Positions 52,438-54,849 of a DNA stretch of 64,000 nt are shown here, piece by piece; the stretch's first letter is position 1; each line of letters starts with the position of its first letter. The stretch covers positions 13,800 to 77,799 of the forward strand of contig JAFTNY010000033.1 of assembly GCA_017451625.1 (NCBI GenBank), given 5' to 3'. The position numbers were made by a program, and so were the translations under genes. Origin of the DNA: Alphaproteobacteria bacterium (GTDB taxonomy: Bacteria; Pseudomonadota; Alphaproteobacteria; Rs-D84). Below the pieces are notes generated by a model, which was given only the letters and a program-made list of their open reading frames with translations, was not told where the DNA came from and made no database searches.

Positions 52438-54849
52438 CTATATAATCGGTGGGAAACAGTCGCCCCCTGTGTCTGGGCAACAGTTAAATCCTTGTTCACC
52501 CATATCCGTATATGTTTCCCCTGGGCAACATCCATTTGCATCTGGTGCAACATTTCCTTCGCACATGATTGGGGCTGGTGCCTCTTCGGTGGGGGCGTCT
52601 GGCTGATTAAATGGATTTTCAATCGCGCCTGTTTCTTCGTCGTATGTCAGTCCCAAGACCTGTTCATTATATGCTTGTTGTCCTTGATTGCTGATATATG
52701 CAACACTGTTTTTGTTGTCTGTGGATTGCTGATTTTCATATACCGCCTGTTGCTTGGCGTTGTTAATCGCCTCGTACTGGCTGGACTGGCAATAGAACAA
52801 CAGTGTACGATAATCATACGTATTGCATCGACTATCGTTTTCATAGCCATTTTTCACTTTGCCGTTTTCGCAACATTCGCCAACCGCAAATGAACGCACC
52901 TGACCAATCCAATCTGGACCTGATTGATCGATGTTAACAGAACCGCGCAATTTATCGCTGTTGTATTGTTCGCGCTTTGATGCCAAACTTCTGGAATAGT
53001 ATTCTTTTACATAGCATTTACCCTGATCTGGTCCGCATACCACAATCAAGTCTTCAGGTGAATAGACCGTAATGCGCGTACCTGCAGCAATTGTAAATGG
53101 TGGAACTGTATTGTCCATCATATCAACCATCAGTTTTTGTGCGACCTGATTCCATGCGGTTATAATTTCATTCTTCGCCAGTTCTGATGAACGCACTGTC
53201 CCGCTTTGAACGACTGTGTTATTATCTAAATCGATCTGATTTACAAACGCATCAGACACAGGCGCAATCAAATTCACCGCCGCCGGCACAATTGCTGTCA
53301 ACATTGGCATAATAAACTGTTCCATATAATCTGTACTGCCGCGCCCTGGGACACCTACACGCCCCTGTGCATCACCTGCAAATGGATTGTTATCGGTGTC
53401 AAAGTTAAATTCAACACCATCTGGACGAATAAATTGATACCAATTAATCTGCATACGACCAATCGCTTTGTATGGCCCTGGTAAATCACCTGTCACATAA
53501 CCCAACATCAACGTCCCCGCTGGGATAATAATATTGCGGCCATCATCTGAATAAACGTTTCTGTCCACTGTCGCACGCACTGGTAATGGATGCCCATCTT
53601 TATAGACGCTGGCATCGGCGCGAACTTCGGATACAATTGTTGCCGGAATTGGTTTGTACTGACGCAGGACAAAACTGCGATCATATGGTTGTGTTGAAAT
53701 AACTGCGTATTCATCGCCCGATGTACCATATATAACATCTTCTTGTGGTGCAGATTTTAGCCCACCCAACGATTCTATGCCGTCCGCGCTTAATCGTCCT
53801 GCGCCACCACTGTTTGGCAGTTTAGATAACTCTAACTGTTCGGCACGATTAACTTGTTTTATCGCCGGTGCGTTCGACAGTTTTGGTATTGCACCACCGC
53901 TAATTGCCGCCCATCCGATATGTTCTGCATCTGTGCCAATTCTTTTGCCGCTGTCGTCGGTTATGATTCCATTGTCTGGGTTATATACACCGGCTGCCTT
54001 GCGACATTCCTTGTCTGCAAATGGGTGATAGTAATACGCGCCCCCGCTGGGTTTTATCCACCCAATTTGACGGCCGTTTGTGCCATATGCCGGAAATGCA
54101 AAATCTGAACAGCCATCTGGAATAACGATGCCTTTTTCTGCCACAGGTTCTGCCGCTGGCTGTTTTATAGTAATCGCTGGTGCAATCGCTTCGACTTCGC
54201 GTTTAATTTCTTCCTTGATAACGATTGGTTCTGGCTCTGCTTCTATTTCCTGTTCAGATGCGAAATCGTCCGCCGGTATCGCATCCAGCACAGGTGTTGG
54301 TACAACAACTGGTTCCGGTTCTGGCTTTTGTTCTGGTTTTGGTTGTGCCACAGGTGCAGTCGCCCCCAACGTCAAAACAATCTTGGCTGTTTTGGTCATG
54401 GCATCTGTTGCGTCTGCCCCATACCAATCAATAAACACTGGCAGATTTTTTGTCGCCATCGGTGCCGTTGGTGCGTATTCTAAAAAGATTTCACACGCCA
54501 CCGTTGGACCAATTTTGCGTATTTTTTTACACGTGTCGCGCAGTATCAGCCCCTTGATTTCTTCGTGTGTACGAACATCTGCAATCATTGCATCCGCCGT
54601 CGCAGATACTTTGACTGTTTCGGTTTTCTTTTGGCCGACAATAACATCAGACCAATTCACCATATCAGGTGCAATTTTTAGTTCCGCAGGTACAGTGTCT
54701 TCAATTTCTGATGCGCTATTATCGTCGCCACTTAACAATAATGTCAACAGTATCAACACCACAACAAACGCCGCCGCCAACAGCAACCACTGTACACGTT
54801 TTGGTGTATTTTGCCGCAGTTCTGAAATCTGTTCTTTAAGTTTACTCAT
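52438..54849 (-). CDS. virB10: Type IV secretion system protein VirB10/TrbI-like, expanded (pre-domain insert and ~200-aa Cys-rich C-terminal extension)
   Basis: N-terminal TM; Pro/Glu-rich linker 'PKPEQKPEPEP'. TrbI core 'IIIPAGTLMLGYVTGDLPG...GRMQINWYQFIRPDGVEFN...GDAQGRVGVPG'. The C-terminal tail carries 'CCPGETY' and 'NCCPDTGGDC'. ATG 54849 is preferred over the TTG at 54894. Confidence 0.85.
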   Translation of the reverse strand: MSKLKEQISELRQNTPKRVQWLLLAAAFVVVLILLTLLLSGDDNSASEIEDTVPAELKIAPDMVNWSDVIVGQKKTETVKVSATADAMIADVRTHEEIKGLILRDTCKKIRKIGPTVACEIFLEYAPTAPMATKNLPVFIDWYGADATDAMTKTAKIVLTLGATAPVAQPKPEQKPEPEPVVVPTPVLDAIPADDFASEQEIEAEPEPIVIKEEIKREVEAIAPAITIKQPAAEPVAEKGIVIPDGCSDFAFPAYGTNGRQIGWIKPSGGAYYYHPFADKECRKAAGVYNPDNGIITDDSGKRIGTDAEHIGWAAISGGAIPKLSNAPAIKQVNRAEQLELSKLPNSGGAGRLSADGIESLGGLKSAPQEDVIYGTSGDEYAVISTQPYDRSFVLRQYKPIPATIVSEVRADASVYKDGHPLPVRATVDRNVYSDDGRNIIIPAGTLMLGYVTGDLPGPYKAIGRMQINWYQFIRPDGVEFNFDTDNNPFAGDAQGRVGVPGRGSTDYMEQFIMPMLTAIVPAAVNLIAPVSDAFVNQIDLDNNTVVQSGTVRSSELAKNEIITAWNQVAQKLMVDMMDNTVPPFTIAAGTRITVYSPEDLIVVCGPDQGKCYVKEYYSRSLASKREQYNSDKLRGSVNIDQSGPDWIGQVRSFAVGECCENGKVKNGYENDSRCNTYDYRTLLFYCQSSQYEAINNAKQQAVYENQQSTDNKNSVAYISNQGQQAYNEQVLGLTYDEETGAIENPFNQPDAPTEEAPAPIMCEGNVAPDANGCCPGETYTDMGEQGFNCCPDTGGDCFPPII

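Follow-up and report, generated by a model that had tools for sequence, protein, structure and literature searches.

A conserved cysteine-rich tail of VirB10 in gut Alphaproteobacteria of the order Rs-D84 ends in a six-cysteine module found on other envelope proteins

VirB10 is the only subunit of type IV secretion systems (T4SSs) that spans both membranes, and it gates the outer-membrane pore. In a stretch of 64,000 nucleotides from an Alphaproteobacteria bacterium of the order Rs-D84 (assembly GCA_017451625.1, contig JAFTNY010000033.1, positions 13,800 to 77,799; hereafter "the window"), the gene of a VirB10-type protein does not stop behind the TrbI/VirB10 beta-barrel but runs on into a long cysteine-rich tail. 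This locus raises the question of whether the tail is a genuine part of VirB10, on which side of the outer membrane it would come to lie, and what it might do there. We find that this extension of VirB10 is genuine and shared throughout Candidatus Enterousia / order Rs-D84, i.e., gut and rumen Alphaproteobacteria with genomes below 1 Mb, and that, as judged from sequence comparison, it ends in a new compact domain that is reused on at least four protein architectures.

By its barrel, topology, and operon, the protein is to be classed as a divergent member of the TrbI/VirB10 superfamily and not as an equivalog. The barrel is recognized by Pfam (Table 1) and has its sequence matches in the PDB in CagY (best) and ComB10, and the NCBIfam VirB10 score of 59 bits stays under the equivalog cut-off of 220. 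The protein has the bitopic layout of VirB10/TrbI proteins, with an N-terminal transmembrane (TM) anchor followed by a Pro-rich periplasmic region in which a P/E-rich stretch, APVAQPKPEQKPEPEPVVVPTPV, can be read directly at about residues 180–203. A database protein of 803 amino acids (aa) that is 100% identical (P0001, "TrbI/VirB10 family protein, MAG Alphaproteobacteria", MAG denoting a metagenome-assembled genome) starts at M16, which corresponds to position 54849.

Behind the last residue of the barrel (residue 616), the open reading frame (ORF) continues for 202 residues. A preliminary description of this DNA had read this part as a Cys-rich module of about 200 aa fused past the TrbI barrel and placed it at 52438–53040, which is essentially right (the tail occupies 52441–53046), and the motifs that it had quoted are all present in the translation: CGPDQGKC at residues 620–627, GECCENG at 672–678, CNTYDY...FYCQ at 690–703, CEGNVAPDANGCCPGETYTD at 778–797, and NCCPDTGGDC at 804–813. 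Its view that such a fusion is unusual for VirB10 is borne out by the canonical proteins. Plasmid-borne VirB10 proteins align no further than residue 616–636, and in the annotated records the VirB10 ORF of A. tumefaciens ends 24 aa past the position aligned to residue 616 and that of Sphingosinicella 55 aa past the position aligned to residue 636, with virB11 and virD4 directly downstream in both plasmids. With 202 residues past the barrel compared to 24–55 in canonical VirB10, the extension is therefore both real and unusual.

The tail is also not peculiar to one assembly. We compared 120 listed matches to VirB10 (54–100% identity, 776–813 aa; 121 sequences in the alignment with the query), each of which covers 98% of the query. 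In addition, a scan of 185,579 species genomes yielded 463 confirmed module-encoding stretches, and the locus counts given below refer to the best 80 of these 463, found in 80 MAGs of Candidatus Enterousia, uncultured Alphaproteobacteria, or "Rickettsiales" from animal and human guts. Barrel and module lie within a single ORF in 79 of the 80 species loci, and the tail that the preliminary description had proposed to look for in related genomes is thus present there with its cysteines conserved. A frameshift or an assembly fusion that joined a separate Cys-rich ORF to virB10, which that description had listed among the conditions that would refute its reading, is practically inconceivable because the ORF is continuous in the 120 homologs (independent assemblies) as well as in 79 of 80 species genomes, and because the tail shows the substitution pattern of a coding sequence when read in frame with VirB10 (69 species); nothing was found in its favor. 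Across the same 69 species, the frequency of nonsynonymous differences per site (pN) is 0.105 for the terminal module, 0.120 for the barrel, and 0.374 for the middle of the tail, with a synonymous counterpart (pS) of ca. 0.7 at which synonymous sites are saturated.

Ten of the 12 tail cysteines are conserved in 92–100% of the 121 sequences, namely the invariant residues 620, 675, 702, 778, 789, 790, 805, 806, and 813 together with C627 (92%); C674 and C690 are variable. The barrel is devoid of cysteines in all 121 aligned sequences. Across 190 sequences, the tail holds 10, 12, or 14 cysteines in all but one (189/190), and its middle region varies in steps of two only. Since cysteines are gained and lost in pairs, the sequences indicate that the tail is disulfide-rich and hence that it would reside in an extracytoplasmic, oxidizing location.

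From the barrel outward, the tail consists of a short Cys loop that is presumably closed by a disulfide, a middle part that would have one to three more, a flexible linker, and a terminal module with six cysteines (Table 1). The middle part is confined to VirB10-type proteins in a profile search of representative proteins and carries the motifs WxGQxRSF, YDYRTxLFYCQS.QY (predicted as a long helix), and YNEQVLGLxY...NPF. AlphaFold2 models the whole tail with a mean predicted local distance difference test score (pLDDT) of only 62.7, while the module alone, modeled with a diverse alignment, reaches a mean pLDDT of 88.9 and a predicted template modeling score of 0.65 with a central beta-hairpin. 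High confidence for the module alone and moderate confidence for the whole tail point to a modular tail, the terminal unit of which is, according to these models, an autonomously folding mini-domain. The C-terminus (...GGDCFPPII) does not resemble a sorting signal of the PEP-CTERM, LPXTG, or GlyGly-CTERM types, as it is without a hydrophobic helix or basic cluster.

Where else does this module occur? A profile of the tail matched 254 of 1.84e9 representative proteins. The full tail was found in VirB10-type proteins only, and its last ca. 45 positions were also found in three other settings. These are (i) proteins of ca. 680–850 aa with a conserved coiled-coil N-terminal part in the cytoplasm, one TM helix, and a long PE-rich linker with the module at its end, (ii) leader-bearing proteins of ca. 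180–280 aa with an N-terminal ER..C.D...YRRDC.KRA.GR region and one to three modules, and (iii) proteins of ca. 60–100 aa that consist of a TM or leader segment and a single module. The cysteine spacing C-x10-CC-x14-CC-x6-C, which in VirB10 comprises residues 778, 789, 790, 805, 806, and 813, is identical in 101 of 138 instances, and several other positions are invariant across all architectures including the VirB10 tail (PD.NGCC, GE.YTD.G, GFNCCP, and GGDCFPP). Two subtypes of the module can be told apart, one with YTDMG..GFNCCP and one with FKDLGN..FACCP. The family ends in C-[FY]PP[ILM]x-stop with the stop codon 4–5 residues beyond the last cysteine, so that the module almost always forms the extreme C-terminus, although internal copies exist in multi-module proteins. 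In a module scan with tighter alignment, the best 80 loci were all VirB10, and module reuse is therefore stated at the level of the lineage.

Searches of Pfam and the PDB revealed no relative of the module, and neither granulin nor other known Cys-knot families gave a significant fold or profile match. The top Foldseek neighbors, a bovine antibody knob, a defensin, and a granulin, are very weak and not significant; the granulin half-module, defensins, and antibody "knob" domains do, like the module, have ca. 40 residues and adjacent CC pairs flanking a beta-hairpin. As far as modeling and searches go, the module is a previously undescribed small disulfide-rich bacterial domain. One database protein, P0184 (194 aa), joins the N-terminus of translation initiation factor IF-2 (86% identical to 27882–30317 of the window) to the C-terminal half of a VirB10-type tail and is most likely a chimeric metagenome assembly.

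The genomic contexts of the other module proteins lie outside the T4SS. A small secreted protein with one to three six-Cys modules is encoded by the last gene of a five-gene operon, at 28/28, 32/32, 39/39, and 47/47 of the eligible loci. The other genes of this operon, which is possibly related to the Lol or MacB systems, encode a lipoprotein, an FtsX/MacB_PCD permease, an ATPase of the ATP-binding cassette type, and a bitopic protein with repeats of the type GCPEN..KY....ELEI..AL (the GCPEN protein); in P0249, GCPEN repeats are directly fused to a six-Cys module. The large bitopic module protein is translationally coupled to gcrA, i.e., its ORF of ca. 800 aa overlaps the gcrA stop codon, and it is found near a prepilin peptidase gene. 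We presume it to be comparable to Caulobacter PodJ with its coiled-coil cytoplasmic part, TM helix, periplasmic wall-binding C-terminus, and control by GcrA; its neighbors gave only spurious coiled-coil matches and no functional hint. At one locus (L085), the pair of gcrA and bitopic gene is duplicated in inverted orientation. No VirB genes were found within 8 kb of the other module proteins, and, across 80 species, virB10 has no second module ORF as a neighbor within 10 kb. Together, these contexts suggest that the lineage uses the module generally as an envelope domain and that VirB10 is one of its bearers.

The window itself encodes numerous secreted Cys-rich proteins, and the preliminary description had seen motifs of these proteins in the VirB10 tail. 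A relationship between the two did not hold up. Profile hidden Markov models of the tail, of its N-terminal part, and of the module, when run unfiltered against all six-frame ORFs of the window (hmmsearch --max), matched only VirB10 itself, with the next matches in non-coding frames at E = 0.07–0.36, and we thus reject the view that other ORFs of the window, those for small and large Cys-rich proteins included, are homologous to the tail. The motif CCPGETY, which had been taken as common to both, has a lone counterpart in a "CCPG" of the ORF at 50945–51301, and its proline is variable within the tail family (CC[PAT]GE). The small and medium secreted Cys-rich ORFs are rich in S, T, G, and Y, two of them have a leader MPNL.VGLG in common, and one has a match to Ephrin_rec_like (24 bits); the tail has neither this leader nor this composition. 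It is a coincidence that the six-Cys module does occur on a different small secreted family, and on two other types of envelope proteins, elsewhere in these genomes. Two large secreted paralogs in the window (26.6% identity) combine an N-terminal part rich in Ser, Thr, Ala, and Arg with a Cys-rich C-terminal part and have no family match.

What could the tail do on a secretion channel? In solved core complexes, the outer-membrane pore is formed solely by the antenna helices of VirB10 (PMC6536674), and a Strep-tag on the VirB10 C-terminus can be used to purify functional assembled T4SS, i.e., the tag is exposed (PMC5916273). If, in assembled complexes, the barrel lies beneath the outer membrane with the VirB10 C-terminus accessible to solvent, each VirB10 subunit of the ring would contribute a tail to the periplasmic face of the outer-membrane core complex. 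There, the middle region could form an additional peripheral layer on the core complex. The terminal module, tethered by its flexible linker, would dock to a ligand or envelope scaffold that is also used by the other module proteins; candidate targets are further copies of the module and components of the cell wall or close to the outer membrane. The tail would then serve an "expanded" core complex as a fused accessory peculiar to this lineage, rather than being an adhesin. By analogy to known core complexes, we see about an even chance that the tail is indeed placed on the periplasmic side and that its module is a docking domain shared with other envelope proteins. The occurrence of the module on VirB10 and several unrelated envelope proteins makes a lineage-specific periplasmic docking module probable. 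A few observations weigh against this periplasmic docking model. The tether of the module varies widely, from a position directly behind a TM anchor to a linker of ca. 200 aa, which fits poorly with one fixed partner. Extracellular proteins are where small disulfide-rich domains typically occur, a point that would leave room for surface display. The only T4SS genes found are virB8–10, since VirB4, VirB11, and VirD4 are not recognizable in the 64 kb and flanks of ca. 20 kb. Moreover, the order has been reported to be without a respiratory chain (PMC12306168), which sits uneasily with disulfide formation in the periplasm.

The preliminary description had instead imagined the tail on display at or beyond the outer membrane, in the role of a built-in adhesin or receptor-mimic, and in such a scenario the tail or its Cys knob would reach the surface via or beside the VirB10 pore and bind a host or target cell. 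As a small and strongly conserved knob that is rich in disulfides and carried by a flexible linker, the module would suit this role, its weak and non-significant structural neighbors are extracellular mini-domains, the organisms are reduced-genome, partner-dependent gut bacteria with many other secreted Cys-rich proteins, and H. pylori CagY sets a precedent as an expanded VirB10 with host-binding parts. However, we found nothing that supports surface display directly, and two lines of evidence lean toward the periplasm, i.e., that the barrel is periplasmic in solved complexes with only the antenna helices crossing the outer membrane and that the identical module elsewhere sits on proteins that have no more than a Sec leader or a single anchor in the inner membrane, encoded in housekeeping or envelope operons. 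Furthermore, host pressure would be expected to make the most exposed part of an adhesin variable, while the module is the most conserved segment instead, and no outer-membrane translocation device is associated with it. We therefore consider surface display to be quite unlikely.

Two further explanations would keep the tail in the periplasm. The modules might bind each other, with the tail stabilizing the VirB10 ring and perhaps replacing a missing VirB7 lipoprotein, and the soluble proteins with two or three modules would then be cross-linkers. Consistent with this, we saw no virB7-like gene between secE-nusG and virB8, multi-module soluble proteins exist, the P0249 fusion points to physical links among module proteins, and the N0 domain of Xanthomonas VirB7 oligomerizes into an outer ring (PMC6536674). 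Yet VirB7 proteins are tiny and easily missed, neither the tiny single-module anchored proteins nor the gcrA-linked protein have an obvious need for a T4SS ring, and the flexible linker speaks against a rigid ring built by the module, so that self-association appears unlikely, though it deserves somewhat more credit than display at the surface. Alternatively, the disulfide-stapled C-terminus could merely be a cap that shields envelope proteins from proteolysis or unfolding without any specific partner, as its almost invariable position at the extreme C-terminus of functionally unrelated proteins might suggest. This is very improbable given the many invariant non-Cys positions across architectures, which go beyond the needs of a cap, and given the internal copies in multi-module proteins. 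The periplasmic docking model thus remains the one that we favor.

Compared to canonical VirB10/TrbI proteins such as A. tumefaciens VirB10, TraF of pKM101, TrwE of R388, and H. pylori ComB10, the Enterousia protein is alike in its TM anchor, Pro-rich region, barrel, antenna-like segment, and the virB8-9-10 gene order, but it is twice as long (818 compared to ca. 380–480 aa) and has extra domains in its periplasmic N-terminal part. CagY of H. pylori is similar in that it is much larger than the VirB10 barrel it contains and has accessory regions that are lineage-specific and include cysteines. However, these are helical repeat arrays N-terminal to the barrel, while the Enterousia addition is C-terminal, non-repetitive, and ends with six cysteines, and there is no sequence similarity between the two proteins outside the barrel. 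TonB is composed of a TM anchor, a Pro-rich spacer, and a small C-terminal docking domain, and both the bitopic module proteins of ca. 700 aa and VirB10 are built in a comparable way, the six-Cys module standing where TonB has its docking domain, but without homology to the TonB C-terminal domain or an ExbB/ExbD context. The closest functional analogy is the N0 domain on VirB7 of the Xanthomonas T4SS, a lineage-specific domain of a core subunit that is also found in other envelope machines and forms an extra periplasmic ring around the O-layer (PMC6536674). It differs in being on VirB7 and in its fold, shares no homology with the module, and has an experimentally determined ring role that is inferred here. 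Rickettsia VirB10 (481 aa), with virB11-virD4 downstream, has no reported Cys tail (PMC2653234). In the literature searched, we found no description of a Cys-rich C-terminal extension of VirB10 and no link between Rs-D84/Enterousia and type IV secretion.

The surroundings of virB10 are those of a conserved chromosomal unit, virB8-virB9-virB10-orf114, beside secE-nusG-rplKAJL-rpoBC. The genes virB8, virB9, and virB10 are contiguous on the minus strand with an order conserved in 76–78 of 80 species, and orf114, which directly follows virB10 on the same strand in 70/80 species, may be a fourth member of the operon; its product has no TM segment, leader, or family match. Neither virB11 nor virD4 lies downstream of this virB10. 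VirB9 and VirB10 are both extended at their C-termini in this lineage: VirB9 carries an extension of ca. 215 aa with a SPOR-like end (Pfam SPOR E = 9e-4, 20 bits for a cut-off of 21) that, by this sequence match, may anchor the T4SS core to peptidoglycan. In VirB10, the N-terminal periplasmic half is likewise expanded and always has four cysteines, with invariant pairs 122/134 and 262/297, and precomputed matches to PF15780 (ASH, Ig-like) are found in the homologs P0060, P0082, and P0092.

Upstream of virB8, an ORF of 390 aa is matched in only 8/80 loci, and the corresponding interval of a related locus (L088) holds secE and nusG on the opposite strand, so this ORF is probably spurious. Rickettsia rvh systems have five tandem copies of VirB6, and by analogy the five tandem, weakly paralogous ORFs for polytopic proteins in the window, all without Pfam or NCBIfam match, may be VirB6-like candidates. 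Finally, a yidC-lspA-kefB-ksgA-recR-dacC cluster is located immediately downstream of orf114 in 62–69 of 80 species (loci L001–L080). Its position ca. 41 kb away from orf114 in the window, compared to the direct neighborhood in relatives, points to a large rearrangement or insertion in this genome.

Table 1. Location of VirB10 segments, operon genes, and other features. Positions refer to the window unless a locus is named.
Feature	Residues	Positions	Strand	Remarks
virB10 ORF	1–818	52438–54894	minus	818 aa from TTG, uninterrupted; stop codon 52438–52440
N-terminal periplasmic half of VirB10	1–409	54894–53668	minus	
N-terminal TM anchor	31–49	54748–54804	minus	hydropathy scan; block 83% conserved among homologs
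TrbI/VirB10 beta-barrel	410–616	53047–53667	minus	Pfam PF03743, 68.7 bits (cut-off 35)
Hydrophobic antenna-like segment within barrel	526–544	53263–53319	minus	hydropathy scan; antenna assignment inferred from position
Whole C-terminal tail	617–818	52441–53046	minus	12 Cys here
Cys loop just past barrel	620–627	53014–53037	minus	C620-x6-C627; C-x(6-12)-C in homologs, always 2 Cys
VirB10-specific middle tail	628–762	52609–53013	minus	ca. 135 aa; 2, 4, or 6 Cys by species
Pro/Glu/Ala-rich flexible linker	763–777	52564–52608	minus	NQPDAPTEEAPAPIM; variable in alignment; pLDDT <50
Terminal six-Cys module	778–818	52441–52563	minus	41 aa; C-x10-CC-x14-CC-x6-C-FPPII-stop
virB9		54870–56402	minus	510 aa; CagX domain at aa 53–294
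virB8		56433–57143	minus	236 aa; same operon
orf114		51845–52189	minus	directly downstream of virB10
390-aa ORF upstream of virB8		57212–58384	minus	probably spurious
Secreted Cys-rich ORF, small/medium		30519–31112	plus	
Secreted Cys-rich ORF, small/medium		50945–51301	minus	
Secreted Cys-rich ORF, small/medium		50578–ca. 50900	minus	
Secreted Cys-rich ORF, small/medium		17937–19157	minus	
Large secreted paralog		39445–41709	plus	754 aa, 31 Cys
Large secreted paralog		48356–50548	plus	730 aa, 25 Cys
Five tandem polytopic ORFs		32772–39386	both	397–495 aa, 6–8 predicted TM segments each
yidC-lspA-kefB-ksgA-recR-dacC genes		3828–10419		
Five-gene operon		loci L091–L152 (e.g., L083 1659–6336)		lipoprotein (ca. 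450 aa), permease, ATPase, GCPEN protein, module protein
Bitopic module protein		L084 4891–7874; L085 561–2987 and 4110–7052		

The domain added to VirB10 matches the barrel in its conservation throughout an entire order, which suggests an essential role in building or anchoring the secretion apparatus. This order is uncultured, has genomes of less than 1 Mb, and is abundant in animal and human guts, and the module offers an experimental handle on the envelope biology of this almost uncharacterized lineage. A bolder idea, which on balance we find unlikely, is that the module is a lineage-specific "address tag" that plugs unrelated envelope machines into a common receptor or scaffold, or else that the VirB10 copy is a surface contact knob. 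The machines so tagged may be the T4SS outer-membrane core, the product of the Lol/MacB-type operon, and the gcrA-coupled bitopic protein that resembles a polarity factor. If true, such an address tag would be a new principle by which gut symbionts with reduced genomes organize their cell envelope.

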